Source: Clostridia bacterium (GTDB taxonomy: Bacteria; Bacillota; Clostridia; CAKSNL01; HGM11501). Taken from it: a DNA stretch of 64,000 nucleotides. Made by a program: the position numbers and the translations under genes. Every line of letters starts with the position of its first letter. Positions within the stretch are counted from its first letter, which is position 1. This document shows positions 2,940 to 30,620 of the stretch, one piece after another. The stretch spans positions 48,963 to 112,962 of the forward strand of contig JAZNEB010000024.1 in assembly GCA_045588365.1 (NCBI GenBank). Reading direction: 5' to 3'. The notes beneath the pieces are model-generated. The model ran no database searches. It had not been told where the DNA came from and saw only the letters and a list, made by a program, of their open reading frames with translations.

Positions 2940-2941
2940 AT

Positions 2942-3036
2942 AAAAATTGCCTCGGACAAGTTCGAATCACTTTTTATTTTGCCAACAAAAAAACCGCCCA
3001 AAGGCGGCTTTTTTCTTGGCGTTCCCGAGGTGATTC
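2942..3036. repeat. Copy 1 of a 95-bp tandem repeat carrying a terminator hairpin and the 3'-terminal 20 nt of tRNA-Arg
   Basis: 95/95 identical to 3085..3179 except one c/g mismatch; ends with tggcgttcccgaggtgattc = revcomp of tRNA-Arg T-arm/acceptor/CCA. Confidence 0.85.
2986..3017. terminator. Rho-independent terminator (ccgcc-caaa-ggcgg + T6) inside repeat copy 1, downstream of Gfo/Idh/MocA gene
   Basis: A7-ccgcccaaaggcgg-cttttttctt; bidirectional. Confidence 0.65.
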
Positions 3037-5107: not shown

Positions 5108-6402
5108 ATTTCTGCCGCTGCAAAGCCAAGAGGCGAGATTTTTATCTCGTCTTTTTCTGTTTTTGTTCCTCTTTCAATTATCATCTTTTTTATTCCGTCT
5201 GTCTTTATTGTTTTTTCTTCTTTCCCGAAGTTTATGGAAACTAAAATCCTTTTCTCTCCTTTAATTCTCTCAAAGGCAAGTAATTCCCCTTTATTTTCCT
5301 CTCTTAAAATAAGCTCTCCGTCATATAAAAGAGGATAGTTCATTCTCATTTTATTAAGTTCTTTCATTAAGGCAAGACGGCTCTGTCCCTCCACACTCAT
5401 GGCGTTGGACCAGTCTATTCCTATGTTCTTACCTGAGAATCTGTTAGAGAACATATTCTGTGTTCCCCTATCCAAAATTTCATTTCCGTTCCATATAAAG
5501 GGAACTCCGTCAACGGTGTATATAAGAAAATAGCATAAGTCTGTTATTTCGTGAGGATAAATCAAATCCATACGTCTTTCCTTGTGGTCGCTTGCCAGAT
5601 CGTGGCTTTCAAAAAGGTTAAGATGCTTATAACCAACTGAGGTAGTGAATTCCAGTGTCTTTTTAAAGGCCTCTGCCTTATCCTCCGAGTCCATAAAGGC
5701 GTGCCAGCCCATTCCTCCAAAAGCAGTACATCTGTAAGAAAGGTCGAAAACCCCGCTATTTACAAATTCGGGAGCTATTCCCTCATCAATCATAACAAGA
5801 TTTTCATTTATCTTCCTGCATCTTTTAATGCCCTCTTCCCAGAAATCCAGAGGTATGGCATCTCCCACATCGCACCTGAAGCCGTCAACCTTGTATTCTT
5901 TTAAGAAAAGCTCCATATTGGAGTAAAGATATTCCCTGACTTCATTATTTTCATAGTTTATTCTTGCGAAAGGCCAGTTGGCACCTACTAATGGCTTTCC
6001 GTCCTCATCCTGCTTCACCCAATCGGGATGCTCCTTTAAGAAAACCGCATTGACTCCGCAGTGAAGATATACAAGGTCGAACATTACCTTAAGTCCTTCC
6101 CTGTGTGCCTCGCATACAAAATCCAAAAGGTCTGAATTATCACCGTATTCCTCATCCACATTGAAATAATCCGCCATTTTATAGGGGTTTTTGGGGTTGT
6201 CTGCACCCGATGCAATTTGCCTGGGACTCCAGGTTGCTCTGTTTAAGTCAGCATCTGCCATCCATACGGGGCAAAGATAAATCCAGTTTACTCCAAGCTC
6301 CTTTATGTGATGGAGCATCTTTTTTGCAGCGTTAAGTGTTCCGTCAGGAGTTAATGCTCTTAGGGATATCTGATAAAGTATCCTATTTTCCACAAAAATC
6401 AC
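5104..6402 (-). CDS. Glycoside hydrolase family 13 (alpha-amylase family) enzyme, cytoplasmic
   Basis: 432 aa; GH13 conserved regions (DLVYLHCG, GFRCDVGD, EGI..., FESHD); no signal peptide. Confidence 0.8.
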   Translation of the reverse strand: MIFVENRILYQISLRALTPDGTLNAAKKMLHHIKELGVNWIYLCPVWMADADLNRATWSPRQIASGADNPKNPYKMADYFNVDEEYGDNSDLLDFVCEAHREGLKVMFDLVYLHCGVNAVFLKEHPDWVKQDEDGKPLVGANWPFARINYENNEVREYLYSNMELFLKEYKVDGFRCDVGDAIPLDFWEEGIKRCRKINENLVMIDEGIAPEFVNSGVFDLSYRCTAFGGMGWHAFMDSEDKAEAFKKTLEFTTSVGYKHLNLFESHDLASDHKERRMDLIYPHEITDLCYFLIYTVDGVPFIWNGNEILDRGTQNMFSNRFSGKNIGIDWSNAMSVEGQSRLALMKELNKMRMNYPLLYDGELILREENKGELLAFERIKGEKRILVSINFGKEEKTIKTDGIKKMIIERGTKTEKDEIKISPLGFAAAEI

Positions 6403-6524: not shown

Positions 6525-7268
6525 GTGCGGTCTTATGTAACTTCCTTTCTGGGTGCTTTTACAAATATGCGAAAAAAAGGGGCTTTCCCTACAAATCCCA
6601 GGCCTTTCTCGGTGGTGAGCCTCCGCATACGGGGAAACGCCGTATTTTATGAAGAGAACAACACTACCTATGTTTCAGAGGGTGATGTTTTATTTGTTCC
6701 GGAAAACACCGCCTACTGGCAGGAATGTGATACGGATGACGAGGTTATTGCAATTCATCTTACATTGGATAAGCCTCTTTCTTCTAATATTTTCAAAATC
6801 TCTCCCGAAAACTTCCAATCGGTTCTTCCCCTTTTTAAAAAACTGGAGAAAATGTATGGAGAAAATAAAGAGGCAAACCATTTTGTCTGCCTCTCCCTGC
6901 TATATGAAATATTAAGCCTGTTTGATGAAAAAAATACTGCCGACCTTCCCCCTACACTGCTAAAAGCTGTTTCGGTTATTGATAAAAACTATATGAATCC
7001 CGATTTTTCTGTTTTTTCCCTTTCTGAAAAGCTTGGGGTAAGTCAGGCATACCTGAGACTTTTATTTAATAAACACCTTTCTACTTCACCCAACGCCTAT
7101 ATCCGCAGCTTAAGATTTAAAAGAGCCAAGGAGCTTTTATCCTCTAATTATTACTCTGTAAGTGAAGCTTCAATCATGTCAGGCTTTGCCAATGAAAAAA
7201 ACTTTTCCACCGCATTTCGTAAAGAGTTTGGCAAAACGCCCTCCGAATTTAAAAAATCCGCCCTTTGA
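6525..7268 (+). CDS. AraC family transcriptional regulator
   Basis: ORF 6495..7268; likely GTG start 6525 with AGAGGTG RBS; C-terminal AraC HTH (NYMNPDFSVFSLSEKLGVSQAYLRLLF...). Confidence 0.7.
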   Translation: MRSYVTSFLGAFTNMRKKGAFPTNPRPFSVVSLRIRGNAVFYEENNTTYVSEGDVLFVPENTAYWQECDTDDEVIAIHLTLDKPLSSNIFKISPENFQSVLPLFKKLEKMYGENKEANHFVCLSLLYEILSLFDEKNTADLPPTLLKAVSVIDKNYMNPDFSVFSLSEKLGVSQAYLRLLFNKHLSTSPNAYIRSLRFKRAKELLSSNYYSVSEASIMSGFANEKNFSTAFRKEFGKTPSEFKKSAL

Positions 7269-8723: not shown

Positions 8724-9560
8724 TTAAATTCCGTATTTTTCCTTTAAGAACTTTCTGCTTAAGCTTGCAGCTTCAAGGGGAGGCATATCGGGAGATTCAT
8801 CCTGCTCCACAATGAGAGTGTGAATCTTGGATTCCTCTGCTGCCTTTAAGATAGCATCAAAATCCTGTCTTCCCATGCCAAGAGGTCTGAACTTAAATTC
8901 ATTATCCGCCTTGGAGGGCTTTTCGCTTGCATTTCCTTCTGCATCAATAAGCGCATAAGCAGGGCCGCCTGCCAACTCTTTACAGTTAAAGTCCTTAAGA
9001 TGAAGAACGCTTAAGCGGTCAGCATATTTTCTTATGTACTCGGCAGGGTCATAGCCTGCATAGCAAACCCAGCAGGTATCTATCTGGGGATTTAAGATGC
9101 CTTCAAGAACAGAGTAAAGTCTGTCGAAAATTGTCATTCCGTCAATTTTATCAAATTCAAAGTCGTGATTGTGATAAATCATTTCCATACCGGCTTCCTT
9201 TATAGCCTCGCCGTACTTTTTGAAGTTTGAAATGGTTTCGTCCCAGACGGGTGTTCCGTATTCAAGCTTCTCCCTTTCATACCAGGGAATAGCAACATAT
9301 TTAACTCCAAGCTCAGCCATATAGTCGATAATTCCGTTTCCTTCATTTAAGAAAGGATCCATTCCCTGATGAACAGAAACACACTTTAAATCATACTTTG
9401 CTAAAATTTCTTTGATTTCTGCGGCACTTTTTCCGTAAAATCCGGCAAATTCCACATAATCATAGCCCATTTCCTTGACCTTTTTAAGTGTGCCTTCAAA
9501 ATCCTTTGCCATATCGTCTCTTACAGAATAAAGCTGCAGACCAACATTAAACTTTCTCAT
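8724..9560 (-). CDS. Sugar phosphate isomerase/epimerase (xylose isomerase-like TIM barrel)
   Basis: 278 aa; family resemblance to 1094..1927 product; sigma-A promoter TTGAAT-17-TATAAT on minus strand at ~9585-9615. Confidence 0.7.
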   Translation of the reverse strand: MRKFNVGLQLYSVRDDMAKDFEGTLKKVKEMGYDYVEFAGFYGKSAAEIKEILAKYDLKCVSVHQGMDPFLNEGNGIIDYMAELGVKYVAIPWYEREKLEYGTPVWDETISNFKKYGEAIKEAGMEMIYHNHDFEFDKIDGMTIFDRLYSVLEGILNPQIDTCWVCYAGYDPAEYIRKYADRLSVLHLKDFNCKELAGGPAYALIDAEGNASEKPSKADNEFKFRPLGMGRQDFDAILKAAEESKIHTLIVEQDESPDMPPLEAASLSRKFLKEKYGI

Positions 9561-19206: not shown

Positions 19207-20235
19207 TTGAAAAGAGGATTGCTTTTTACATCCGTGTTTACTTTTGTTTTTTTCCTCTTGTTTGTGCATAAGATAACATTTAATCCCTCTGAAAGACTTA
19301 TAACATTTTCCGTTTCCTCTTCCCTTTGTAATTATTTTCCGAAAAGTACACCCTTAGTATCCTTTTCAAAGGAGTCCCTTATCTTGCTCGGGACGCTGCC
19401 CCCTGCCTCAGAAAACAAAAAAAGAGAGACTTCCTTAAAAGAAAGCCTCACATTACAAAAGGAAAATAACGAAAGTCTCCCTCCCGGGATAAAGGAGATA
19501 ACCATTGAAACGGGAGGGACAAGTCTTTTCGGTGTCCAGATAAACAACGAAACTGAGTATAATCTGGAAAATGCCTTTTCAGAAAAGAAATTCTCCCCTT
19601 CTTCTCCCGTTCTTATAGTCCACACCCACACCTCAGAAGCCTACCGTCCCACCTTAAAAAACTTCTATGAGCCTAAAGACAACCAAAGAAGCGAAGATGT
19701 AAATTTCAATGTGGCAAAGGTGGGGGCTCATCTTTATGAAAGTTTAAAATCCAAAGGAATTGATGTTACCCACGATGATACCATAAATGACTATCCGTCA
19801 TATAACGGGTCTTACAGCAAAACTCTCCGCCTAATAGAAGCTCACCTTGAAAAAAATCCTTCCATAAATATAGTTCTGGATCTGCACCGTGATGCCATGG
19901 AAAAATCCGACGGGACAAAATTAAGCACCGTTTGCGAAATAAACGGAGAAAAAGCCGCCCAGATAATGATTGTGGTAGGCACAGACCAAAGCGGTCTTAC
20001 CCACAGTAACTGGAGGAGCAATTTTTCTTTCGCCGTTTGCCTCCAGAGAGCTTTGGATAAAAAATTTCCCGGTCTTATGCGTCCCATCAATGTAAGATGC
20101 GAGCGCTTCAACGGACACGTTTCAGAAAATCAGCTTATCATAGAAATCGGCACAACGGGAAATACTTTGGAAGAAGCCTTATTGAGTGCCGAAGCCTTGT
20201 CTATAGGTCTTTCGGATATTATAAAGGGTAGCTGA
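19207..20235 (+). CDS. spoIIP: Stage II sporulation protein P (SpoIIP)
   Basis: 342 aa; TTG start with GGAGGGG RBS; N-terminal TM, SpoIIP family blocks (IHTHTSEAY, VLDLHRDA...). Confidence 0.8.
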   Translation: MKRGLLFTSVFTFVFFLLFVHKITFNPSERLITFSVSSSLCNYFPKSTPLVSFSKESLILLGTLPPASENKKRETSLKESLTLQKENNESLPPGIKEITIETGGTSLFGVQINNETEYNLENAFSEKKFSPSSPVLIVHTHTSEAYRPTLKNFYEPKDNQRSEDVNFNVAKVGAHLYESLKSKGIDVTHDDTINDYPSYNGSYSKTLRLIEAHLEKNPSINIVLDLHRDAMEKSDGTKLSTVCEINGEKAAQIMIVVGTDQSGLTHSNWRSNFSFAVCLQRALDKKFPGLMRPINVRCERFNGHVSENQLIIEIGTTGNTLEEALLSAEALSIGLSDIIKGS

Positions 20236-20839
20236 TTACAAAAACCACAGAGCCAAGTATTTTTATATCATGCTCACGGGCATCATAAATTTTTATGTCG
20301 GGAGCCAGCGACTCATCTTTTATGGTTATTTCCGTACCTTTTATGAATATACGCCTGAGCACGGCTTCCTTTCCGTCAACACTCACCGCTCCGATTGTAC
20401 CCGATTCAAAGGGTATTGAGGGATTTATCAAGACCTTATCTCCCGCACCAATTTTTGCATAAATCATACTGTCATCTTTGGCTATAACAAAATAGCAAAG
20501 GTCCATATCCTCTCTGGAATAATTTCCCGTAATATGACCGATGGTATTTATATCCCTTATGTCCTCCCTGGAGGTAACCTTTTTAGGAAATTCCGCAAAT
20601 ATCGGGATTTTGGATATGGGCTCCGACATAAACGGGGCGTCAGATTCGCCCTTTATATAAGAGGAAGGAACACCCAGAGCCTTTGCTATTTTAATAACAT
20701 CCTCCTCTGTTGGAGCACTGTAATCGGTCAGATAGCGCTTAAGCGAAACCTCTCCTATTTCCGAGCGCTTTATAAGCTCCTCTTTTGGCATATTTCTGCT
20801 TTCCATTAAATGAAGTATTCGCTCTCCCATAGTTGCCAT
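20219..20839 (-). CDS. CI/LexA-like repressor: HTH_XRE N-domain + S24 peptidase C-domain
   Basis: ORF to 20848; preferred ATG 20839 (AAGGAA RBS); S24 catalytic motif AKDDSM ... K; N-terminal XRE-type HTH. Confidence 0.7.
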   Translation of the reverse strand: MATMGERILHLMESRNMPKEELIKRSEIGEVSLKRYLTDYSAPTEEDVIKIAKALGVPSSYIKGESDAPFMSEPISKIPIFAEFPKKVTSREDIRDINTIGHITGNYSREDMDLCYFVIAKDDSMIYAKIGAGDKVLINPSIPFESGTIGAVSVDGKEAVLRRIFIKGTEITIKDESLAPDIKIYDAREHDIKILGSVVFVISYPL

Positions 20840-20879
20840 AAAAATCATTCCTTTTATATCTTTTTATTTAGTATATCAT

Positions 20880-20920
20880 AAGGGAATATCCCTTAAAAGG
20901 CAATAAGGAATATTTCCTTA
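20880..20920. promoter_or_regulatory. Two related palindromic operator-like sites between divergent repressor genes
   Basis: AAGGGAATATCCCTT (20880-20894) and TAAGGAATATTTCCTTA (20904-20920) share half-site AAGG(G)AATAT. Confidence 0.5.
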
Positions 20921-20947
20921 TGTTAAGATAATTCAGAGGTGTTGAGA

Positions 20948-21169
20948 ATGAAACTCCGGATAAGAGATTTAAGAGAAGACCACGATCTGACTCAAAAAGA
21001 ACTTTCAGAGCTTTTGCATATACATCAGACAACCTATTCCGCCTATGAGCTGGGAGACGTAAATGTTCCCCTGCCTGTTTTATGCTTCTTAGCGGAATTT
21101 TACAAAACCAGCATTGACTATTTAGCAGGGATACCCGACGAACCTAATCCCTATCCGAAAGCAAAATAA
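20948..21169 (+). CDS. Cro-like XRE-family HTH regulator (73 aa)
   Basis: ATG 20948 with GAGGTG RBS; HTH_XRE (LTQKELSELLHIHQTTYSAYE). Confidence 0.7.
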   Translation: MKLRIRDLREDHDLTQKELSELLHIHQTTYSAYELGDVNVPLPVLCFLAEFYKTSIDYLAGIPDEPNPYPKAK

Positions 21170-21192
21170 AAAAAGCGGCTATGCCGCTTTTT

Positions 21193-22194
21193 TTATTTTG
21201 TAGTTACCGCTATTACGCCGTCATTTATTTCCGCCTTTGCATTTTCTCCGAAAAGAAGCTTGAATATATCCAGACCAACAAAGGTTCTGTCCTCAATTAT
21301 TTCGGGAGCTTTTTCGCTTTCACTAAAAATCTTCTTTCCGATTATTAAGGACTTTTCTGCTTCGCCTTTTTTAAGTGTTACTTCTCTTTCTTCCCCATTC
21401 CAGGAAATTTCAAAGCCGAGACCTTCTGCCAAAGAACGGAGAGGAATAAGTTCTTCCTTTAAGGAAAAGGACACTTCCATTTTTTCGCCGTCAAGTAAAA
21501 TACCTTCAATTTCTCCTGCCTTTCTTTCAGCCAAGGTGAGAACTGCTATTTTTTCTGCAGGGACATGAGCGGGAAGGCTCATTCCAACGGCAGAAGCAAA
21601 TACCAAAATCTCGGAGCCCTTTGTAATGTCCATGGCTCTTAACATAATTCTTATTCTGTGTGCAGTAACAGGTGTCAAATCTTCATATACCACACGGTAG
21701 GAGCCGTCTTCGGATAGAATAACCCCGTCCTTATTTTCGGACACTACCATATAGATGGGAGCAGAAATGGAATTTTCAGTATTTACCAAAATATAAAATG
21801 CATAGTTCTGGGGCGGCAGGCTCATTGTGGTCATTGTTGAAGTTACCGCACTTATCATATCTCCCACTTTGATTTCTGCAGGGTTTAAGTTGTAATCCGC
21901 AATATATGTATTTTGGTCAATGTTTAATCTTAAGTTACCGTCATTTACCATTATGTAATCTTCTGTAATTTCCGATACGACTCCGTGCTGCATCATCTTT
22001 TCAGGCATAACAAACTCCTTGGCGTCGGCTTCTTCAAAGTCTACAGCCTCTTCAATGGGCATTGTTGAATAAGGGTCATCCTCTATGCCAATGAGCATTG
22101 TTGCGTAGGGGTCCATTTCTTCATTGGCGGAGGCATACATACCAAAAGCAGTAAATACCATTAAAACCGCCAGCAATAAACTTGTCTTTTTCAT
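21193..22194 (-). CDS. Secreted protein with C-terminal copper-amine-oxidase N-terminal-like (stalk) domain
   Basis: Start ATG 22194 (AAGGAG RBS), signal peptide MKKTSLLLAVLMVFTAFGMYASA; C-terminal Cu_amine_oxidN1-like segment (IPLRSLAEGLGFEISWNGEEREVTL). Confidence 0.55.
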   Translation of the reverse strand: MKKTSLLLAVLMVFTAFGMYASANEEMDPYATMLIGIEDDPYSTMPIEEAVDFEEADAKEFVMPEKMMQHGVVSEITEDYIMVNDGNLRLNIDQNTYIADYNLNPAEIKVGDMISAVTSTMTTMSLPPQNYAFYILVNTENSISAPIYMVVSENKDGVILSEDGSYRVVYEDLTPVTAHRIRIMLRAMDITKGSEILVFASAVGMSLPAHVPAEKIAVLTLAERKAGEIEGILLDGEKMEVSFSLKEELIPLRSLAEGLGFEISWNGEEREVTLKKGEAEKSLIIGKKIFSESEKAPEIIEDRTFVGLDIFKLLFGENAKAEINDGVIAVTTK

Positions 22195-22291
22195 AAATTT
22201 ATTCTCCTTTTTTGTTTCTGTATATAATACAATTAAAAAAAGCAAAAGGTTGCATAAAAATTAAAATATTTTAAGAAAGGTATAAATTTTC

Positions 22292-22320
22292 TTGACAATA
22301 GGGTTTTTCCTCCTTATAAT
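22292..22320 (+). promoter_or_regulatory. Sigma-A promoter for argF (TTGACA-17-TATAAT)
   Basis: consensus hexamers, ~50 nt upstream of ATG. Confidence 0.6.
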
Positions 22321-22368
22321 ATACAAATATACTATCATTTCGTATATTTATACAAAAGGAGCAATATT

Positions 22369-23364
22369 ATGAAAAAAATAAACTTAAAGGGAAAAAGCTT
22401 TTTAAAGCTTTTGGATTTTTCCCCGGAAGAAATAAATTACCTTATAGATTTAGCCGCTGATTTTAAGGCTAAAAAGAAAAAGGGAATTCCCCACAGAATA
22501 TTAAAGGGTAAGAACATCGCCTTGATTTTTGAAAAAACCAGCACAAGAACCAGATGTGCCTTTGAGGTTGCCGCATCTGACCTTGGAATGAGTTCCACTT
22601 ACCTTGACCCCACAAGCTCTCAGCTTGGCAAAAAGGAAAGTATTCCTGATACCGCAAGAGTTATAGGCAGAATGTATGACGGCATAGAATACCGTGGCTT
22701 CGGTCAGGAGATTGTGGAAAAGCTGGCTTCTTTTGCGGGCGTTCCCGTGTGGAACGGACTTACAAACGAGTTCCACCCCACTCAGATTTTAGCTGATTTC
22801 CTTACCATAAAGGAGCATTTCGGTTCACTTTCGGGCAAAAAATTGGTTTATATGGGCGATGCCAGATACAATATGGGCAACTCTTTAATGGTTGGCTGTG
22901 CCAAGATGGGTATGAATTTCGTGGCGTGCACCAGCAAAAAGTATTTCCCTGACGAGACTTTAATAAATACCTGCAGGGAAATTGCCGAAAAAACAGGCGC
23001 AACCTTATCCTTTAACGAAGACCCCATAGAGGCAACAAAAGATGCTGATGTAATTTATACAGACGTGTGGGTTTCCATGGGCGAGCCTGAAGAAGTGTGG
23101 AAAGAAAGAATAGAGGACTTATCTCCCTATCGTGTTACAAAAGAAATTATGGATAACGCCGGTGAAAAGTGCCGCTTTATGCATTGTCTTCCTGCTTTCC
23201 ACAACCTGGATACCAAAATCAGCAAAGAAATTTACGATAAATTCGGCATTGATTCAATGGAAGTTACCGAAGAGGTTTTTGAAAGCGAAAAATCCATTGT
23301 ATTTGACGAAGCTGAAAACAGAATGCACACAATTAAGGCAGTTATGGCAGCTACATTAAAGTAA
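22369..23364 (+). CDS. argF: Ornithine carbamoyltransferase
   Basis: 331 aa; STRTR carbamoyl-phosphate motif, HCLP motif. Confidence 0.9.
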
Positions 23365-23412
23365 AATTTATTAAAAAAGCTTCCTCTTATGGAGTGTACT
23401 CTTAAGGACAGT

Positions 23413-23448
23413 AAACGGAGCAGTGAATTTCACTGCTCCGTTTCGCTA
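23413..23448 (+). terminator. Terminator hairpin after argF (cggagcagtg-aattt-cactgctccg)
   Basis: 10-bp stem; weak T tract. Confidence 0.5.
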
Positions 23449-23924
23449 TTATAAAAACAATCTTTTTCCCATCTTATCACATTTGTATCTATGTATTCCC
23501 ATATCTTTTGATAGTCTTTTTCACCGCGAATTATGTGGTCGTGATATGACCTTTGCCATATAGAATTACCTATTTCTTTTGCGACCATTGTTTTGAATGA
23601 ACGAACTATGGTTTCTATGTTCTTTGTAGGGGACGATGCCCTCATCGTCCCGTTAAGAAATATAATCAAATGAATATGATTTGGCATTATTACATATTTA
23701 TCAACTGTTACATTTTCATATTTTATGTTTATATTATTGATATATCTGTCACATATTAAACCGATTTCAGACAAATTATTTTGCGGGACGATGTGGGCAT
23801 CGTCCCCTACGATTTTAGACAACAATTGCTTTCTGTCTTTGACGCATATTGTAATAAAATATGCTCCCGGTGTTGAATAATCGTACCCTTTCAATCTTGC
23901 TGGTTTTCGTTTTGGTAAAGTCAT
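23430..23924 (-). CDS. IS200/IS605-type Y1 (HUH) transposase-like protein, RAYT-like (COG1943)
   Basis: 164 aa; HUH motif PNHIHLIIF, catalytic Tyr region WQRSYHDHIIR; start overlaps XRE stop (ATGA). Confidence 0.75.
   Translation of the reverse strand: MTLPKRKPARLKGYDYSTPGAYFITICVKDRKQLLSKIVGDDAHIVPQNNLSEIGLICDRYINNINIKYENVTVDKYVIMPNHIHLIIFLNGTMRASSPTKNIETIVRSFKTMVAKEIGNSIWQRSYHDHIIRGEKDYQKIWEYIDTNVIRWEKDCFYNSETEQ
23626..23652 (+). repeat. REP-like GTAG-headed GC-rich palindrome inside transposase ORF (copy B)
   Basis: GTAG-GGGACGATG-CCCT-CATCGTCCC-G; encodes GTMRASSP in-frame on minus strand. Confidence 0.7.
23784..23810 (-). repeat. REP-like GTAG-headed GC-rich palindrome inside transposase ORF (copy A, inverted orientation)
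   Basis: minus strand GTAG-GGGACGATG-CCCA-CATCGTCCC-G; encodes GDDAHIVP in a different frame from copy B. Confidence 0.7.
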
Positions 23925-24154
23925 AATATTTCCTCTAATTTTAAAACAAAGATACTCATTTTAATATCAAGAGCATTACAAATTCTATATAATGTTTCTA
24001 AAGTAGGTTTGCGCTCCCCTCTTTCTATGGCGCTCAGATGACTTCTGCCTATGTCAGCTAATCCACTTAACACTTCTTGTGAAATGCCTTTTTGCTGTCT
24101 GAAAAAAGCAACAGTTTTACCCACTTTAATAGAATCTAGTGTGGCTATATACAT
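23921..24154 (-). CDS. XRE-family HTH transcriptional regulator (77 aa)
   Basis: HTH_XRE (ISQEVLSGLADIGRSHLSAIERGE); translationally coupled to downstream transposase gene. Confidence 0.75.
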   Translation of the reverse strand: MYIATLDSIKVGKTVAFFRQQKGISQEVLSGLADIGRSHLSAIERGERKPTLETLYRICNALDIKMSIFVLKLEEIL

Positions 24155-24194
24155 ATTCTCACCTCAAGAATAGTATATGTCATTTCAAAAGAAC

Positions 24195-24250
24195 GTTTGA
24201 ACACATATGTTGACAATCGAACACTTATGTGTTATAATTTGATTGTCAAA
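24195..24250. promoter_or_regulatory. Divergent promoter region with sigma-A promoter (TTGACA-17-TATAAT, 24210-24238) and overlapping palindromic operator-like sites
   Basis: AACACATATGTT (24200-24211), ACACTTATGTGT (24220-24231), IR TTGACAATC/GATTGTCAA (24210-24218 / 24242-24250). Confidence 0.5.
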
Positions 24251-24272
24251 TTAAAAATGGAGGTAGAACAAA

Positions 24273-25061
24273 ATGAAAAAAGGATTACAGGGGTTAATTT
24301 CAGGTGTGTTGATTGGTGCAATGATGACAAGTGGGATGGTATTTGCAAAGCAAGCATCAGAAACAATTAATGTTATTTATGATAACATAAAAATTTTGAT
24401 TGACGGCAAAGAGTATCAACCGACAGATGCAAATGGCAATGTAGTTGAGCCGTTCATTTATAACGGAACTACATATCTTCCTGTAAGAGCAATAGCAACT
24501 GCCTTTGATAAAGAAGTTGATTGGGAAGCGCAGACAAGCACCGTTACATTAGGCAGTAAAAATTATGATTGGTTAGACCAGATGGGATATGTTGATTATG
24601 AATATAGTGCTATAGGAAATTCATTTTCTGCTTTGCCGGAGAACACAAAAATGTCGGATGATACGAAATTTAATAGAGGAATTATGTTTGAACTTTATGA
24701 TTACTTAGGAAATACAGGGGGTACGACGGAAAATAAAGATGGTTCATTTGGATGTAATGAAAGTATATCATATTTACTCAATGGTCAATATAAGTCCTTT
24801 CGCGGAACAATATCTCATAAAGAAAGTGGAAATACAAGAGTTGGAAATTCAGTAATAAAAATTTATGGCGATGGAAAGTTGCTATACACTTCTCCCGCAG
24901 TGTCATATGGAATGAAGTCAACAAATTTTGATATTTCGGTTGAAAGTGTTAAATTATTAAAAATTGATGTAGAATTTTTGAACACCATCGGAACAACAGC
25001 TGTATCAAATACAAAGAAGTCATTTCCCTGTATTGCTGATGCAAGATTATGTAAAAAATAA
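24273..25061 (+). CDS. Secreted protein: copper-amine-oxidase N-terminal-like domain + NPCBM-like carbohydrate-binding domain
   Basis: 262 aa; signal peptide; segment NGTTYLPVRAIATAFDKEVDW typical of Cu_amine_oxidN1; C-terminal NPCBM/NEW2-like. Confidence 0.5.
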   Translation: MKKGLQGLISGVLIGAMMTSGMVFAKQASETINVIYDNIKILIDGKEYQPTDANGNVVEPFIYNGTTYLPVRAIATAFDKEVDWEAQTSTVTLGSKNYDWLDQMGYVDYEYSAIGNSFSALPENTKMSDDTKFNRGIMFELYDYLGNTGGTTENKDGSFGCNESISYLLNGQYKSFRGTISHKESGNTRVGNSVIKIYGDGKLLYTSPAVSYGMKSTNFDISVESVKLLKIDVEFLNTIGTTAVSNTKKSFPCIADARLCKK

Positions 25062-25164
25062 TGTCCGGGACTGTAACAAGCAGGGAAAATGTATATCATT
25101 TTCCGAGATATTTTAGAATATCCTAAGACCTTAAAATGGGCGATTCGTGAATCTCCCCTACGAT

Positions 25165-25203
25165 AAAAGGCTGAACGAAATCAATCGTTCAGCCTTTCAA
25201 AAT
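25165..25203 (-). terminator. Terminator hairpin (aggctgaacga-loop-tcgttcagcct) downstream of relQ-like gene
   Basis: 11-bp stem; T tract on minus-strand side. Confidence 0.5.
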
Positions 25204-25226
25204 TACTGTCCTTAACAGTACACCTC

Positions 25227-25934
25227 TTATGAGGAAGCTTTTTTATCATATACACATTCTCTCAGGTGGTCCATGGTTTTGTCAAGCTTTGCGCTCATCT
25301 TGGCACAAAGAAGCAAATCCTCGGACATTTCCTTTGTAAATTCCACGTCTTTTTTATATTTAAGCTGATGCTCTAATGCAGCCCAGGAGTCCATGGCAAT
25401 GGTACGAAGCTGAATTTCAACCTTCATATATCTTTTTTCATCAATTAAGAAAATGGGCACGGAAACAATAAGGTGCAGACTTCTGTAGCCGTTTGGCTTC
25501 GGCTTTTTTATATAGTCCTTTTTCTTTATAAGGGTAATGTCATCCTGGCTTAAAAGTGCCGATGCAATCTTATATACATCCTCAGTAAAGGTGCATATAA
25601 CTCTGACTCCCGCCACGTCATTTAAGTTTTCTTCAATGGACGGAAGAGATATATCAAACCCGTTTTTGGAAAGCTTTGTCCTTATACTTTCGGGATTTTT
25701 AAGTCTCGATTTTATACTGTTTATGGGATTTCTGTCATACCTTAAGGAAAACTGTTCATTTAATACATTAAGCTTCGTTTCAATTTCCATAAGAGCGCAC
25801 TTATAATACGCCATAAGTCTGTTATAGCTTTCCAGGTATTCCCTCAGCTTTTCTCCCGCATCGGTTTCCCTGAAAAAGGAAACTATCATATCCTGCTGTC
25901 TTTTATCTCCAAGCTGTATTGTTTCAGACATCAA
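25227..25934 (-). CDS. Small alarmone synthetase (RelQ/RelP-type GTP pyrophosphokinase)
   Basis: 235 aa; RelA/SpoT synthetase domain (GVRVICTF, RSLHLIV) without hydrolase or regulatory domains. Confidence 0.8.
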   Translation of the reverse strand: MMSETIQLGDKRQQDMIVSFFRETDAGEKLREYLESYNRLMAYYKCALMEIETKLNVLNEQFSLRYDRNPINSIKSRLKNPESIRTKLSKNGFDISLPSIEENLNDVAGVRVICTFTEDVYKIASALLSQDDITLIKKKDYIKKPKPNGYRSLHLIVSVPIFLIDEKRYMKVEIQLRTIAMDSWAALEHQLKYKKDVEFTKEMSEDLLLCAKMSAKLDKTMDHLRECVYDKKASS

Positions 25935-26006
25935 AACACCTCCCTTATATAAATATCATAATATAAATGAAGTAAATAGTCAAGGTTACTTATGTTAATT
26001 AAATGT

Positions 26007-26046
26007 AAAAAAATAAGTATCGCAAAGCGATACTTATTTTTTTATT
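26007..26046. terminator. Bidirectional terminator (ataagtatcgc-aaa-gcgatacttat + T7)
   Basis: 11-bp stem with A7 before and T7 after. Confidence 0.7.
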
Positions 26047-26653
26047 CAATAGGTTCAAAATCATCTTTCCCGTGCTTGCATATAGGACAAATAAAGTCAT
26101 CGGGCAAATTTTCGCCCTCGTAAACATATCCGCAAATTTTACACCTGAAGCCTTTTTTCTTTGTATCATCAGGCTTTGGCTTAACGTTTTTATGATAGTA
26201 GGCATAGGTCATGGAGGGCTCATCGGAAATCACATGAGCCTCCGTAACAGAGCAGACGAAAAGACCGTGGGAGCCCATATCGTGGTAGGCATCTACCGAA
26301 AGAGAAATAACCGAATTTATAAAATCCCTTAAGCACATAAGTCCGTTTTTAGTTCTCCATGCAAAAACGTCCTCGAATTTATCTGCATCTTTTCCCGACT
26401 TAAAACCGAAATTTTGAAAAAGAGAAAAAGGAGCTTCTTCCGTAAGACAGCAAACATTCATTTTCCTCGTATTCTTTATTATATCGTGAGAATAATTTTT
26501 CTTGTTTACAGAAACCGTTAAAGTCAAAGGATTATCAGCAACCTGAATTACTGTATTTACGATAAGTCCGTTGTCTTTTTCTCCGTCATTGGTACTAACC
26601 ACATAAAGACCGTAACCAAGCTTAAAAAGTGCACTTTTATCAATAGCTTCCAT
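26042..26653 (-). CDS. High-molecular-weight rubredoxin (flavin reductase-like domain + C-terminal rubredoxin)
   Basis: 203 aa; flavin_reduct domain then CKICGY...CPIC rubredoxin Cys4 motif. Confidence 0.8.
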
Positions 26654-26665
26654 AATAAAACTCCT

Positions 26666-27457
26666 TTATTTTATAAAGTCTTCGTATAACGCCCTTATAT
26701 TTTTATAAATGTATTGGGGTTTTACATCACTTTTTTCCACATCCTCCATTGTTCCTTCGCCGCTTAAAACGAAGACCGTGGAAATCCCCGCATTAACTCC
26801 CGATGCAATGTCCGTATAGAGTCTGTCCCCCATCATAAGGGTTTCCTCCTTGGAATAGCCCGTCTTTTCCATGGCTAAGAGTGCCATAGTCGGTTCAGGC
26901 TTGCCGATGAAAACCGGACGTCTTTTGGTTGCCGTTTCAAGTATCTGGGCAATTGAGCCGCAATCGGGTACATAACCGTACCAGGTGGGACAAACCCAGT
27001 CGGGATTTGTAGCTATGTAATCAACGCCTCTTCCTAAAAGTATGCAGGCATCCTCCAGCTTCTTAAAGGAAAGCTCCGTATCAAAGCCCATTAAAAGACA
27101 GTCTATGTCATCCTCTAAAGCCTCGGTAATGGGAAGATTTGCTTTTTTAAGCTGCTCCTTAAAGGAGGTGGTTCCAAAGGCATATATCTTTTTATAAGTC
27201 TTCTTTTTAAGATGGAGAATTGTAGCATCAGTGGAGGTTAAAAAATCCTCTGCCGTAGTCTCTATCCCCATAGATGCCAGCTTCTCTATGTATTTTTCCA
27301 CGCTTTTGGAAGAATTATTTGTAAGGAAGATGTATCTTCCTCCGATTTTTTTAACGTAGGACAAAAAATCCAGCGTTCCGTCAAAAAGGTCGTTGTCAAG
27401 ATAAATGGTACCGTCCATATCAAGTAAAAAAAGCTTTATATCTTTAAGATTACTCAT
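26666..27457 (-). CDS. HAD-IIA family hydrolase (NagD/YutF-like)
   Basis: 263 aa; motif I LLDMDGTIY, HAD-IIA cap and motif IV GDRLYTDI. Confidence 0.75.
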   Translation of the reverse strand: MSNLKDIKLFLLDMDGTIYLDNDLFDGTLDFLSYVKKIGGRYIFLTNNSSKSVEKYIEKLASMGIETTAEDFLTSTDATILHLKKKTYKKIYAFGTTSFKEQLKKANLPITEALEDDIDCLLMGFDTELSFKKLEDACILLGRGVDYIATNPDWVCPTWYGYVPDCGSIAQILETATKRRPVFIGKPEPTMALLAMEKTGYSKEETLMMGDRLYTDIASGVNAGISTVFVLSGEGTMEDVEKSDVKPQYIYKNIRALYEDFIK

Positions 27458-27578
27458 AAGCGCCCCCGTATTTGTTTTTTCTTTATAATACTAAATAAAT
27501 CACTTTAAGTCAATGATTTTTGCGCCTGTTTTTTGCATAATAACAAAAACAGATGCATATTAAGCCATGAATTCAATG

Positions 27579-27607
27579 TTGATATTATATTTTCCCTATG
27601 CTATAAT
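27579..27607 (+). promoter_or_regulatory. Sigma-A promoter for czcD-like gene (TTGATA-17-TATAAT)
   Basis: hexamers at 27579-27584 and 27602-27607. Confidence 0.55.
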
Positions 27608-27641
27608 ATCCTTATATAAAAACTTTTTAAAAGGAGTAGCC

Positions 27642-28538
27642 ATGAAAACAGAAAAAAATATTCTTTTTGCATTTTTATTGAATCTCTTTTTCTCCGTATT
27701 TGAATTTGTCGGGGGAATATTTACGGGAAGCATCGCAATCATTTCCGATTCTCTTCACGATTTAGGTGATGCATTGGGTATCGGCATTTCCTATTTTCTT
27801 GAGAGAAAAAGCAAAAAACAGCCTGATGGCAAATATACCTACGGCTATATGCGCTTTTCTGTTTTGGGAAGCCTTATAACCACGTTTATTCTTCTTATCG
27901 GCTCTTTAACGGTAATCTACGCCTCTTTCTTCAGAATTATGAACCCTTCCCAAATAAATTACAAGGGTATGATTGTATTTGCCGTTATAGGCTTTTTGGT
28001 AAATTCGGGGGCGGCATTTTTCACCCACGGCGGAAAATCACTTAATCAGAAGGCTGTCCATCTCCATATGCTTGAAGATGTTCTTGGCTGGGCGGTTGTC
28101 CTTATAGGTGCATTGGTAATGAATTTTACCGATATTTCCCTTATCGATCCTTTAATGTCAATGGGCGTGGCTTTGTTCATCTTGGTTAACGCCATAAAGA
28201 ATTTAATCTGTGTCCTTGACCTTTTCTTAGAAAAAGTCCCCCACGGGATTGACGTGGAAGAAATAAAAAAACACATTTTGGAATTAGAGGGAGTAAAGGA
28301 TGTTCATCATATACACATACGAAGCATAGACGGTGAAATCAATCACGCCACCATGCACATTGTTTCAAACGAAAACCCCCATAAAATAAAGGAAGCCGTA
28401 AGAAAAGAGCTCCTTGAACACGGCATTTCTCATGTAACCATTGAGCTGGAAGAAGAAAACGAAGATTGCCACGAGCATAACTGCCATATAAATACAAGCG
28501 AGTCTCCCCATCACCATCATCACCATCATCACCATTAA
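27642..28538 (+). CDS. Cation diffusion facilitator family transporter (CzcD-like) with C-terminal poly-His tail
   Basis: ORF 27567..28538; start ATG 27642 (AGGAG RBS); 6 TM, HDxxD-type motifs (DSLHDLGD), C-terminal HHHHHHHHH. Confidence 0.85.
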   Translation: MKTEKNILFAFLLNLFFSVFEFVGGIFTGSIAIISDSLHDLGDALGIGISYFLERKSKKQPDGKYTYGYMRFSVLGSLITTFILLIGSLTVIYASFFRIMNPSQINYKGMIVFAVIGFLVNSGAAFFTHGGKSLNQKAVHLHMLEDVLGWAVVLIGALVMNFTDISLIDPLMSMGVALFILVNAIKNLICVLDLFLEKVPHGIDVEEIKKHILELEGVKDVHHIHIRSIDGEINHATMHIVSNENPHKIKEAVRKELLEHGISHVTIELEEENEDCHEHNCHINTSESPHHHHHHHHH

Positions 28539-28571
28539 AAAAATCCCACAACGGTTGTTGTGGGATTTTTT
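28537..28571. terminator. 34-bp palindromic terminator, copy 1 (A6-tcccacaac-GGTT-gttgtggga-T6 + gattt)
   Basis: 15-bp stem including A/T runs; terminates czcD (+) and the HATPase gene (-). Confidence 0.75.
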
Positions 28572-28575
28572 GATT

Positions 28576-29598
28576 TTATTCTGCCTCAGATTTTATAACG
28601 TGGTTATACATTTTAGTTACATCTTCATTCATATTAACAGGAATAAGCCGAATTTCAGGATGCTGATTTTTGTAAAGAACAAAAATTTGATGTGCAAATC
28701 CCTGTCCCATCCATTCTATCCCGTAAAAATCAAGGATAACCTCCTGAAACTTTTCAAGTCTCATAAGAACTCTCTTTGCCTGAGACCTTGATACCGGAGA
28801 AGCATCAAATATATTTTTAAGCGGTACTTTCGTTTTTGCAAAGCTGCCATCATCATCTGAATACATATCAAACACTTCTTTGCTTTTTTTATGAGAGTAA
28901 TTTGACAGCGACATAATGACCATTGTGCCATTTTGGTGATTTTCCGGAAAATTAACTACATTACTTCTGTCAAATTTATCTGCCGCAAAAATTTTATCGC
29001 TTGAGACAATGAGGAAGTAATCCATCAATTTAGAACTAAAGAAAATTCCCTCTCCTGAATGATTTTTCTTATCTGTTGTAAGCTTGCCCTTAAATAATTC
29101 GCATATAGCATCATCCAGCGATGGCAATTCAAAGTGATTTTTTATTTTCTCGAAAATTCCAACACCGTTATCACTTATAATAACTTCTGTTTTTAAGTAG
29201 TTTTTTCTGATTATAACAAAAAGCCTTTCCGCACCCGAATGGTCGATAACATTATTCACCATCTCACTAAAGCTATATTCCCAAATTTCCTTTACATTTG
29301 AAGGCAAATCTTCTATATGTTTTTTCAGGGTCTCATTATATATCTCTGTTTCACTGTTTATTTCTTGTGCTTCTTTTTGGAAACAATATTCAAATGAAGT
29401 GTCTGACAATTCATATATTCCACGCTTCACACGTTTTATTACATTATTTTCAACCAATTCATTGATATAAGTATGCACAGTGTTGCGGTTGACTAAAAAG
29501 GTTTCCGCTACAATCTGAGAGGGATTTTCAACCTTTTGATCAATTTTTTCAAGAAGATACATTATTATGCGCCTCTTCTTTTCTTCGTTAAACTTCAT
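28576..29598 (-). CDS. Fusion protein: N-terminal winged-HTH + histidine-kinase-like ATPase (HATPase_c, RsbW-like) + C-terminal STAS-like (DUF4325-like) domain
   Basis: 340 aa; wHTH segment (ETFLVNRNTVHTYINELVENNVIKRV), GHKL-like N/G boxes (VNNVIDHSG...ISDNGVGIF...HSGEGIF), C-terminal STAS-like region. Confidence 0.55.
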   Translation of the reverse strand: MKFNEEKKRRIIMYLLEKIDQKVENPSQIVAETFLVNRNTVHTYINELVENNVIKRVKRGIYELSDTSFEYCFQKEAQEINSETEIYNETLKKHIEDLPSNVKEIWEYSFSEMVNNVIDHSGAERLFVIIRKNYLKTEVIISDNGVGIFEKIKNHFELPSLDDAICELFKGKLTTDKKNHSGEGIFFSSKLMDYFLIVSSDKIFAADKFDRSNVVNFPENHQNGTMVIMSLSNYSHKKSKEVFDMYSDDDGSFAKTKVPLKNIFDASPVSRSQAKRVLMRLEKFQEVILDFYGIEWMGQGFAHQIFVLYKNQHPEIRLIPVNMNEDVTKMYNHVIKSEAE

Positions 29599-29628
29599 AC
29601 CAACACCTCATTATAATATTATGCCTTT

Positions 29629-29718
29629 ATTCTATAACATAATTCTCAAAAAGTCAACAGTTATTCGTTTTAATTAAAAAGTTATTCGTTTTAATTTCCG
29701 TCAAAGCGAATAACTATA
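29629..29718 (-). promoter_or_regulatory. Promoter (TTGACT-17-TAGAAT) of the wHTH-HATPase-STAS gene with three upstream repeat sites
   Basis: revcomp 29652-29657 TTGACT, revcomp 29629-29634 TAGAAT; direct repeats GTTATTCGTTTTAATT at 29660-29675 and 29681-29696, inverted half-site GCGAATAAC 29706-29714. Confidence 0.5.
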
Positions 29719-29751
29719 AAAAATCCCACAACAACCGTTGTGGGATTTTTT
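29718..29751. terminator. 34-bp palindromic terminator, copy 2 (A6-tcccacaac-AACC-gttgtggga-T6 + gattt), loop inverted relative to copy 1
   Basis: identical stem and flanks to 28537..28571; terminates rpsI (-). Confidence 0.75.
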
Positions 29752-29771
29752 GATTTGCGAAATAATATAGG

Positions 29772-30167
29772 TTATCTCTTTGAGAACTGGGGTGCACGAC
29801 GAGCTGCCTTTAAGCCGTACTTCTTTCTTTCCTTCATTCTGGGGTCTCTTGTTAAGAAACCTGCAGCTTTTAATGCGGGTCTGAAAGTTTCTTCTACTTT
29901 AAGAAGAGCTCTTGCTACACCATGACGGATTGCGCCTGCCTGTCCGGAAACGCCACCGCCTGAAACTGTGCAGATAACGTCAAACTTTGAAAGTGTGCTT
30001 GTTGCATTTAAAGGCTGGCGAACGATAACCTTTAATGTTTCAAGACCGAAATAATCGTCGATATCTCTGCCATTGATTGTGATTTTACCTGTGCCGGGTA
30101 CAAGTCTTACTCTGGCAACAGATTCTTTTCTTCTGCCTGTTCCGTAGAACATTGTCTTTTCTGCCAT
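29772..30167 (-). CDS. rpsI: 30S ribosomal protein S9
   Basis: 131 aa; conserved C-terminus [14 protein letters not shown]. Confidence 0.95.
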
Positions 30168-30182
30168 TATCGTTTACCTCCT

Positions 30183-30620
30183 TTACTTAATTTCGCCTGC
30201 CCATGCCTCGGGCTTCTGAGCCTCGTGAACATGGTTTGCGTCTTTATACACTCTGAGTCTTGTAAGCTCGTTTGCACCTAAGGTGTTGTGAGGAAGCATA
30301 CCCTTAACTGCAAGATACATTGCACGTTCGGGCTTGATTTCCATCATTATCTTAGCCTGAGTTTCCTTAAGGCCGCCTACATAACCTGTGTGTCTTCTGT
30401 AATACTTCTGTTCCATCTTCTTACCTGTGAGAACTGCGTCCTTACAGTTTACGATGATAACGTGATCGCCACAATCAACATTGGGTGTGAAAGTGGGCTT
30501 ATGCTTGCCCCTGAGAATGCTTGCTGCAACTGCTGCTGTACGGCCTAAGGGCTTTCCAGCTGCATCTATGATATACCATTTTCTCTCAACGGCAGAGCTC
30601 TTTTCAAGATATGTGCTCAT
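30183..30620 (-). CDS. rplM: 50S ribosomal protein L13
   Basis: ORF to 30686 but start ATG 30620 (GGAGGT RBS) gives 145 aa canonical L13 (MSTYLEKSSAVERKWYIIDA...). Confidence 0.95.
   Translation of the reverse strand: MSTYLEKSSAVERKWYIIDAAGKPLGRTAAVAASILRGKHKPTFTPNVDCGDHVIIVNCKDAVLTGKKMEQKYYRRHTGYVGGLKETQAKIMMEIKPERAMYLAVKGMLPHNTLGANELTRLRVYKDANHVHEAQKPEAWAGEIK

Follow-up and report, generated by a model that had tools for sequence, protein, structure and literature searches.

The 64-kb stretch of Clostridia bacterium DNA analysed here (the window, to which all bare coordinates refer) contains a gene encoding a protein of 340 amino acids, termed gene X, that lies between czcD and rpsI and is bracketed by two copies of a hairpin with identical stems. 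Our best reading is that a gene X module was inserted at a single terminator shared by czcD and rpsI, and that the hairpin was duplicated on its arrival. We place the probability of this at about 0.6.

Gene X (28576–29598, − strand) is the sole long open reading frame (ORF) between the hairpins. The locus is bounded on the left by czcD (27642–28538, + strand), encoding a cation diffusion facilitator (Pfam Cation_efflux, 2.4e-36, and ZT_dimer), and on the right by rpsI (29772–30167, − strand), encoding ribosomal protein S9 (Pfam Ribosomal_S9, 1.3e-50). Hairpin copy 1 is a perfect 34-nt palindrome (28538–28571) with the sequence AAAAAATCCCACAAC-GGTT-GTTGTGGGATTTTTT on the + strand. Copy 2 (29718–29751) has identical 15-bp stems around the loop AACC, read as GGUU in the rpsI transcript, so the two loops are reverse-complementary. 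Each palindrome is followed by GATTT, and the complete repeated unit is a 39-nt direct repeat (28538–28576 and 29718–29756) in which mismatches are confined to the four loop bases. The stem being perfectly palindromic, either 34-mer is also the exact reverse complement of the other. The pattern AAAAAATCCCACAAC-NNNN-GTTGTGGGATTTTTT occurs exactly twice in the window. No further copy was found in the 64 kb even when three mismatches were allowed, and none would be expected by chance. An earlier note on this DNA had described the paired palindromes, their GATTT flanks and the reverse-complemented loops, and all of this agrees exactly with the sequence; only the start at 28537 was displaced by one, the real start being 28538. 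Its description of a single gene with its own promoter was likewise correct, there being one long ORF preceded by TTGACT-17-TAGAAT.

The predicted folding energy of the two hairpin copies is close to −20 kcal/mol whichever of the four directions is read (z = −4 to −8), with a U-run present each time, and therefore either copy can act as a bidirectional intrinsic terminator. Both have the expected features of such elements, i.e. a stable GC-containing stem-loop and a U-run on both strands, located after convergent genes. From its sequence copy 1 is a predicted bidirectional terminator that can serve both czcD (+ strand) and gene X (− strand). When each is read in its own direction, the czcD and rpsI transcripts share the hairpin with the GGUU loop, and the transcript of gene X has the AACC version.

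The closest relative is the genome GCA_045123995.1. The most similar czcD (79% identity) and the most similar RpsI (98%) are both encoded on its contig JBGVKY010000012.1 (141,787 nt), from which the czcD side was analysed as L151 and the rpsI side as L154. Nucleotide identity in the collinear stretches is 82.3% (window 19817–23391), 82.3% (25223–28552) and 83.3% (40132–29725, i.e. 10.4 kb). On the czcD side collinearity extends over approximately 7 kb and ends at 28552, the final base of the left hairpin arm; on the rpsI side it runs from 40132 down to 29725. After czcD the relative has TAAATAAAAAAATCCCACAAC|ATTTGCATCGGGTTCCTAAGGACAGTT, and after rpsI it has ATCAAAAATCCCACAAC|GAATGTGTTGGGTTGCTAAGGACATT. 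Its czcD and rpsI hold one arm each of a single hairpin that is split by a 29.8-kb serine-recombinase element in the loop (L154 10425–20396 and L151 6917–12897), and gene X is absent between the two genes. Without the 29.8-kb element the relative would read as czcD and rpsI converging on one hairpin, with no gene X. The earlier note had predicted that related genomes would have one palindrome and no gene at this position, and this is what the relative has. The flanks of the hairpin are also informative. Both window copies have T6 followed by GATTT, compared with T5 and GATAA in the relative, and the outgroups are also of the GATAA type. Since both copies share the derived T6/GATTT state, either the duplication occurred after the two lineages split or there has been gene conversion.

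The hairpin itself belongs to rpsI. An exact scan for the 11-bp core of the stem over 185,579 species genomes identified 38 loci, one per genome, with the lone exception of L008, where there are two nearby copies that are unrelated to the arrangement here. At 15 of the 38 loci the hairpin lies 20–30 nt 3′ of rpsI. All 15 are in metagenome-assembled genomes (MAGs) of Clostridia, with RpsI proteins 74–81% identical to that of the window, and their hairpins have a conserved flank (T)ATC-AAAA and variable loops. Because the stem follows rpsI as a single copy in 15 other species, copy 2 is taken to be the ancestral rpsI terminator. In the rpsI terminators of L002–L037, L148 and L154 the stem is conserved and the 4-nt loop varies. 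The close relatives L148 (loop ATTC) and L154 (loop GAAT) have loops that are reverse-complementary, and these sequences hint that loop inversion recurs at the rpsI hairpin. A further relative, L155 (RpsI 94% identical), has a different rpsI terminator, followed by unrelated genes up to a flavin reductase gene. The interval between czcD and rpsI is therefore a variable hot spot.

Gene X has a ribosome-binding site GAGGTG (29604–29609, − strand, read from the sequence) 5 nt before its ATG, and a sigma-70-like promoter (29629–29657, − strand) with a −35 box TTGACT, a 17-nt spacer and a −10 box TAGAAT; this layout is retained in homologues from other genomic contexts. Upstream of the promoter there is an operator block (29660–29714) of three half-sites AAA(A/G)CGAATAAC, identified as repeats within the window. 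Two are direct and 21 nt apart (29660–29671 and 29681–29692, − strand), the promoter-proximal one touching the −35 box, and the third is inverted (29703–29714, + strand). They are the sole exact copies in the 64 kb. The block is present at the equivalent position in L039, L040, L044, L063, L089, L148 and L149, and more distant clades of homologues have a different motif in place of the half-site. The predicted operator target of the gene X protein is AAANCGAATAAC. The GC content of gene X (33.1%) is the lowest of the 53 ORFs of at least 150 amino acids in the window (mean 39.8%, standard deviation 2.5%, z = −2.7), and the next-lowest two values are those of ORFs in a segment (23393–25222) that is missing from the relative.

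The surroundings of gene X homologues were compared using 100 further loci, labelled L###, together with several obtained by exact protein look-up. When all the flanking ORFs were compared, 70 distinct proteins fell into 38 context classes. Among pairs of homologues 70–79% identical the upstream neighbour was shared in 2 of 17 and the downstream neighbour in 0 of 16. The conserved unit invariably starts at the first operator half-site and stops within the last few codons. To find flanking repeats the 500 nt upstream were compared with the 500 nt downstream, with a direct-repeat score of at least 25 as the threshold. Direct repeats flank 12 of 52 distinct gene X loci, compared with 0 of 168 neighbouring genes from the same loci. 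Duplicated local terminators of 33–105 nt, unrelated in sequence, are present in at least five other lineages. In L044–47 the repeat is 105 nt, comprising the last 21 nt of the upstream pyruvate-phosphate dikinase (PPDK) gene plus the terminator, and covers the last 14 nt of the gene X ORF. That of the L063 group is 103 nt (terminator and operator block), that of L099 is 81 nt and includes the terminator hairpin, and that of L118 is a perfect hairpin repeat of 33 nt beside a homologue just 44% identical. In L039 the rpsI terminator is repeated over 35 nt, once ahead of gene X and once beyond the gene that follows gene X, and a diverged copy lies between the two. A further hairpin pair, in L127, was set aside as a duplication event since the similarity is too weak. 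The family moves among contexts and is found repeatedly between duplicated local terminators, so the duplication appears to be a property of the arrival of the module.

Several of these loci resemble the window more closely. Gene X follows rpsI in L039 (75% identity) and L150 (69%). In L148, from SRR24653744 (93% amino acid and 92.8% nucleotide identity), an rpsI-type hairpin is directly upstream, with the same junction between terminator and operator, and gene X probably also lies after rpsI here; the contig of 1,210 nt stops short of rpsI. The terminator downstream of gene X in L148 is different, and similarity to the window stops approximately 15 nt before the stop codon. L039 has three rpsI-type hairpins within 3 kb: one after rpsI (5843–5877), one after gene X with diverged A/T tracts (7050–7080), and a third (8725–8760) following a gene encoding 522 amino acids with no Pfam match; the first and third are the same over 35 nt. 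Between rpsI and the gene X homologue of L150 there is a tandem array (2629–3024) with a period of 184 nt, 2.2 copies and 92% identity. Its unit contains the last ~30 nt of rpsI, the terminator and a further 110 nt, with no gene inside.

We suggest the following sequence of events. A single-gene accessory module, consisting of the three operator half-sites, the sigma-70 promoter and an ORF encoding a regulator in one polypeptide, would have entered the lone bidirectional hairpin common to czcD and rpsI, and a 39-nt segment (the hairpin plus 5 nt) would have been duplicated. With the 39-nt duplication none of rpsI, gene X and czcD would be left without a strong terminator, and transcription arriving from either side would be kept out of the module. 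Insertion is favoured because gene X has the lowest GC content, in common with the segment 23393–25222 that is absent from the relative; because both hairpin copies carry T6 and GATTT compared with T5 and GATAA in the relative; and because species with rpsI genes as close as those of L039 and L150 have the hairpin without gene X.

The flipped loop would be explained most simply by a later inversion inside the perfect 15-bp palindrome. Alternatively the loops may come from two genomes, the module having arrived with a donor hairpin and recombined through it. The earlier note had taken the flip as a signature of insertion, and this does not hold, because the duplicated loops have the same orientation in other lineages (L118, L099, L044 and L063). 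Since they are unflipped elsewhere, the inversion in the window is not a general mark of the process, and is probably a secondary event.

A number of observations weigh against the insertion reading. An exact deletion of the gene by recombination of one hairpin copy with the other would generate the empty site seen in the relative, so that the empty site alone gives no direction of change; what gives the direction is GC content together with two to three derived characters of the flanks and parsimony. In the relative, gene X was established to be absent at the czcD/rpsI site, and the rest of the genome was not checked directly. The position of gene X after rpsI in L039, L150 and probably L148, together with the different downstream terminator of L148, indicates a history that exceeds one clean insertion; gene X may have been in place before the second hairpin copy appeared, or the site may have been entered several times. 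The repeats of L063 and L089 are, or include, the operator block, which is conserved between species and probably functional, so some flanking repeats are not insertion footprints. No recombinase or other mobility gene was found in or near the module, the only Y1_Tnp gene being in the separate 23393–25222 element of the window, and the module has no terminal inverted repeats with target duplication. Lastly, duplications of variable length (33–105 nt) fit no known transposition chemistry; always containing a hairpin, they do not match a transposase with a fixed stagger. The proposal of the earlier note, that a cassette had been inserted into or had duplicated a palindromic terminator, is thus upheld by the empty site, yet qualified by the arrangements in L039, L150 and L148 and by the possibility of deletion.

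If the module was inserted at the czcD/rpsI terminator, three candidate routes can be suggested. Template switching could have occurred where a hairpin stalled, followed by re-entry at a point upstream. Alternatively, one-sided homologous anchoring in the conserved upstream gene could have been combined with an illegitimate second join. Thirdly, a circular intermediate of terminator plus module could have integrated in a Campbell-type manner through the conserved hairpin. The second and third routes would also explain why gene X is found after rpsI in several species, and they could lead to differing loops if the loop orientation of donor and recipient differed (e.g. ATTC in L148 and GAAT in the relative); simple loop inversion within the perfect palindrome is equally possible. 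A bolder proposal, which we regard as doubtful, is that the wHTH-ATPase-STAS genes (wHTH being a winged helix-turn-helix) are an unrecognised single-gene mobile unit that inserts at intrinsic terminators and duplicates them over 33–105 nt. Such a unit might pass through a circle of terminator plus gene or rely on template switching at the hairpin, and its own DNA-binding ATPase and the two-sided operator blocks of some clades might participate.

Of the competing explanations the one that survives best is that the arrangement is ancestral, and that recombination between the 39-nt repeats excised gene X precisely in the lineage of GCA_045123995.1, leaving the window as the old and stable state. 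We consider this possible, though clearly the less probable course. Recombination between direct repeats leaves exactly one hairpin, both L039 and L150 have gene X after rpsI, and the junction of terminator and operator recurs in L148; in L039 hairpin copies are also present after gene X and after the next gene. By contrast, gene X has the lowest GC content in the window, like the other proven insertion, and the derived flank states are common to both copies and absent from the relative and the outgroups. The second copy is missing from L148, which has the nearest module (92.8% nucleotide identity; the collinear flanks of GCA_045123995.1 reach 82–83%). The rpsI genes of L039 and L150 are no closer to that of the window than those of the 15 hairpin-bearing species without gene X, and the other relative, L155, has different genes after rpsI.

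It is unlikely that the second hairpin is a later local duplication, in which gene X already lay beside the rpsI terminator and acquired a copy of it after its own stop codon, whether through template switching, through gene conversion or through a rearrangement bringing in czcD, the copy being kept because it is insulating. L148 could be seen as the state before such an event, with an rpsI-type hairpin upstream, a different terminator downstream and similarity ending ~15 nt before the stop codon. The overlap of the L044 repeat with the last 14 nt of the ORF, and the 184-nt tandem array of the rpsI 3′ end and terminator in L150, with no gene inside, can be read in the same way. However, the junction between czcD and the hairpin is common to L151 of the relative, so czcD already had a hairpin at its end before the split, one not made behind gene X. 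Moreover, the single hairpin of the relative, without the gene, would be left unexplained.

We think it highly improbable that gene X is moved or flipped as part of a transposon or invertible segment with the 34-nt palindromes as its terminal inverted repeats. The flipped loop makes the 34-mers exact inverted repeats, and an inverted alignment reaches 53 nt at 85% identity. Yet there is no target-site duplication outside the repeats (CACCATTA compared with GATTTGCG) and no transposase or invertase in the module, and the 5-nt GATTT flank suits a direct rather than an inverted repeat. The orientation of the gene relative to the rpsI-type terminator is identical in four of four genomes, and the hairpin is the host's own rpsI terminator. 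Lastly, such stems do occur sporadically in unrelated phyla, but with two copies in 64 kb against none expected, and a single copy in each of the other genomes that carry the stem, 15 of them with it beside rpsI, it is scarcely credible that the pair arose by chance or is a common terminator or repetitive extragenic palindromic (REP)-like repeat scattered through the genome. The earlier note had named a common terminator at many unrelated loci as a finding that would overturn its proposal; the palindrome is instead the rpsI terminator, single-copy in 15 other species and not dispersed.

The gene X protein comprises a winged helix (approximately amino acids 1–75), an RsbW/SpoIIAB-like GHKL ATPase (95–235) and a STAS-like DUF4325 domain (250–337). 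The wHTH-HATPase-STAS-like architecture had been read from the sequence in the earlier note, and Pfam, an AlphaFold model and structural comparison all agree with it. In the hidden Markov model searches DUF4325 scored 52.3 bits, above the cut-off of 23, whereas HATPase_c (24.9 against 26.4) and the winged helix HTH_45 (22.7 against 25.5) were both slightly below theirs. The AlphaFold model, calculated with 19 homologues as input, has pLDDT 78 and pTM 0.71. Its first 75 residues, at pLDDT 93–95, form three helices with a beta wing, and in structural comparison the N-terminus matches winged helices (about 8). The C-terminal domain has the features of a STAS fold and matches RsbV (8.5) and TM1442 (7.8). 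In the central domain the ATP-binding residues of the N-box, G1 and G2 are invariant across homologues, as in a Bergerat fold. The modelled wHTH fold together with the repeated half-sites at its own promoter is consistent with a winged-helix autoregulator, for which binding is predicted.

The C-terminal domain was aligned with SpoIIAA/RsbV by hhalign, using approximate sequences of these two proteins. The probability was 0.3%, which is not significant; W-M-G-Q-G-F lay opposite F-M-D-S-S-G, and in this non-significant alignment there is no Ser at the phospho-acceptor position. S270 and S272 are invariant and precede another helix. No sigma factor gene adjoins gene X, the flanking genes being czcD and rpsI. 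The modelled fold suggests that the protein could be a self-contained partner switch. Most likely it is an autorepressor that contacts the operator of gene X with its winged helix and represses the gene X promoter. The ATPase and the fused STAS-like domain probably form an internal switch, in which DNA binding would be controlled by the RsbW-like domain, through its binding or hydrolysis of ATP and its contact with the STAS-like domain.

The gene X family is large and uncharacterised. A word-indexed search gave more than 7,000 matching proteins. At 50% identity there are 644 representatives (E ≤ 1e-30), nearly all of 330–360 amino acids and matching end to end. No known defence system fits gene X, PADLOC giving only weak AbiEi-like matches to the winged helix, and nothing in NCBIfam was over the cut-off. 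The PHROGs match is phrog_3364, a family of unknown function. A sequence search of the PDB gave only weak matches of DesK type and no solved structure of a close relative, and a literature search found DUF4325 in three papers, of which none is a functional study. The protein was not on record in an exact look-up, and the cluster look-up returned no names. On the basis of sequence and model, the family is predicted to pair direct DNA binding with an internal anti-sigma-kinase/STAS pair.

A second operator block, again made up of three half-sites but not followed by a promoter, lies 3′ of gene X at some homologue loci (L089 6063–6121 and L063 6014–6117). In the L089 clade the downstream repeat is the operator block only, with half-sites conserved between species and diverged spacers. 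As the half-sites are conserved, the spacers diverged and no promoter follows, the downstream copy is probably a functional second operator, and this suggests that the protein would bind both sides of its own gene in L089 and L063. More distant homologues (42–48% identical) are found in prophage-like viral contigs (L130–L145, e.g. L130 5001–6050). They lie between the region of a Lin1244-type replication gene and the small terminase gene, just upstream of the latter, and have a different repeated motif, TTTTAACTTTAC / TATAGTTAAAAA, across the promoter. The interval between the replication and small terminase genes is the usual position of late-gene regulators in Firmicutes phages. In L062 a 229-nt insert (2768–2996) resembling a miniature inverted-repeat transposable element (MITE), with a 7-nt target duplication ATACTGA, immediately follows the stop codon of the homologue, and sequence related to it is found upstream of gene X in L050.

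We note some further features of the window and of the relative. The czcD coding sequence has a histidine-rich tail with a run of nine (HHHHHHHHH, 28511–28535), and its stop codon TAA is fused with the A-tract of hairpin copy 1. On the other side rplM (30183–30620) is the next gene after rpsI. The segment 23393–25222 is a 1.83-kb element of low GC content that encodes IS200-like Y1_Tnp, HTH_3 and Cu_amine_oxidN1/NPCBM proteins. At its site in the relative, from which it is absent, ornithine carbamoyltransferase and RelA_SpoT-like genes converge on a perfect hairpin AAAAAAGCTTCCTC-TTAT-GAGGAAGCTTTTTT. In the window the element occupies the loop of this hairpin, flanked by TTAT at either end, and has terminal inverted repeats of 25 nt (GGAGTGTACTCTTAAGGACAGTAA). 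At its rpsI end the 29.8-kb element of the relative encodes a large serine recombinase (Resolvase, Recombinase, Zn_ribbon_recom and DUF4368), a relaxase and ParB, and at its czcD end TnpV; transporter cargo is also present. Its inverted ends, GGGTTsCTAAGGACA, are similar to the ends of the 1.83-kb element. Elements of this family may use the terminator hairpin of a convergent gene pair as attB. In this genus, palindromic bidirectional terminators that separate convergent genes act as hot spots for integration, with three independent events observed.

The filled site in the window and the empty site in a congener point to the terminator hairpin of housekeeping genes as an entry point for new genes. 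When the terminator is duplicated, no neighbouring transcription unit loses its end. This signature recurs around one large uncharacterised family, and if a dedicated mechanism is responsible it would be a new route of gene mobility without a recombinase in the moved unit. Terminator hot spots should also be useful for annotating islands in Clostridia MAGs.

The module was compared with known kinds of mobile or repeated sequence. A dispersed or REP-like repeat was rejected on the two copies in the window and one per genome elsewhere, and a transposon or insertion sequence on the lack of a transposase in the module and of target duplication outside, with duplicated lengths that vary from 33 to 105 nt. 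An integron gene cassette with attC does not correspond, since a promoter is part of the module, the perfect 34-nt palindrome is the rpsI terminator of the host, and no integrase was seen in the neighbourhood. A Xer/dif-like site was rejected because the element is a perfect palindrome with 15-bp arms and a U-tract, identical to the rpsI terminator. A site-specific integrative element would not account for a module that has no recombinase, with repeats unrelated among lineages and no constant att core. Insertion into the loop followed by correction of the palindrome, as in a serine-recombinase model, leaves unexplained the shared 5-nt flank and the long non-palindromic duplicated flanks of L044 and L099.

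There are nevertheless similarities to integrative elements with a tyrosine or serine recombinase, whose attL and attR reproduce a housekeeping gene's 3′ end with its terminator, and to their non-autonomous cis-mobilizable element (CIME)-like derivatives. Direct repeats of 33–105 nt flank the gene, sometimes with the 3′ end of the upstream gene (PPDK in L044, rpsI in L150), and in the genus palindromic terminators host both the serine-recombinase element and the 1.83-kb element of the window. By contrast, no recombinase is found in or near the gene X module, and the repeated sequence differs in each lineage, which argues against a fixed att specificity. Unlike the module, the serine-recombinase elements split the hairpin in its loop without duplicating it.

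Phage morons are similarly self-contained one-gene transcription units of low GC content, located between unrelated genes and with stem-loop terminators at their ends, and distant gene X homologues are found in prophage-like contigs beside the small terminase gene. Gene X differs in being chromosomal, between housekeeping genes, and its terminators are duplicates of the host terminator, which is outside the definition of a moron. For minute loop inversions, arising by template switching in perfect palindromes, the best-documented examples come from non-coding DNA of chloroplasts and from quasipalindrome mutagenesis. A literature search found nothing relevant on loop inversion in bacterial terminators or on duplicated terminators at insertions. 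The likeness to the hairpins described here is close, with identical stems and just the 4-nt loop reverse-complemented, but here there are two paralogous copies within one genome.

The protein may be compared with the partner-switching systems RsbW/RsbV and SpoIIAB/SpoIIAA, and with the fused protein Rv1364c of M. tuberculosis, in that gene X likewise resembles a partner-switching pair within one chain. It differs in having no evident sigma factor partner and no PP2C phosphatase, and in having W-M-G-Q-G-F at the position of the phospho-serine in an alignment that was not significant. The gene X protein also has an N-terminal winged helix, so that its output is probably direct DNA binding.

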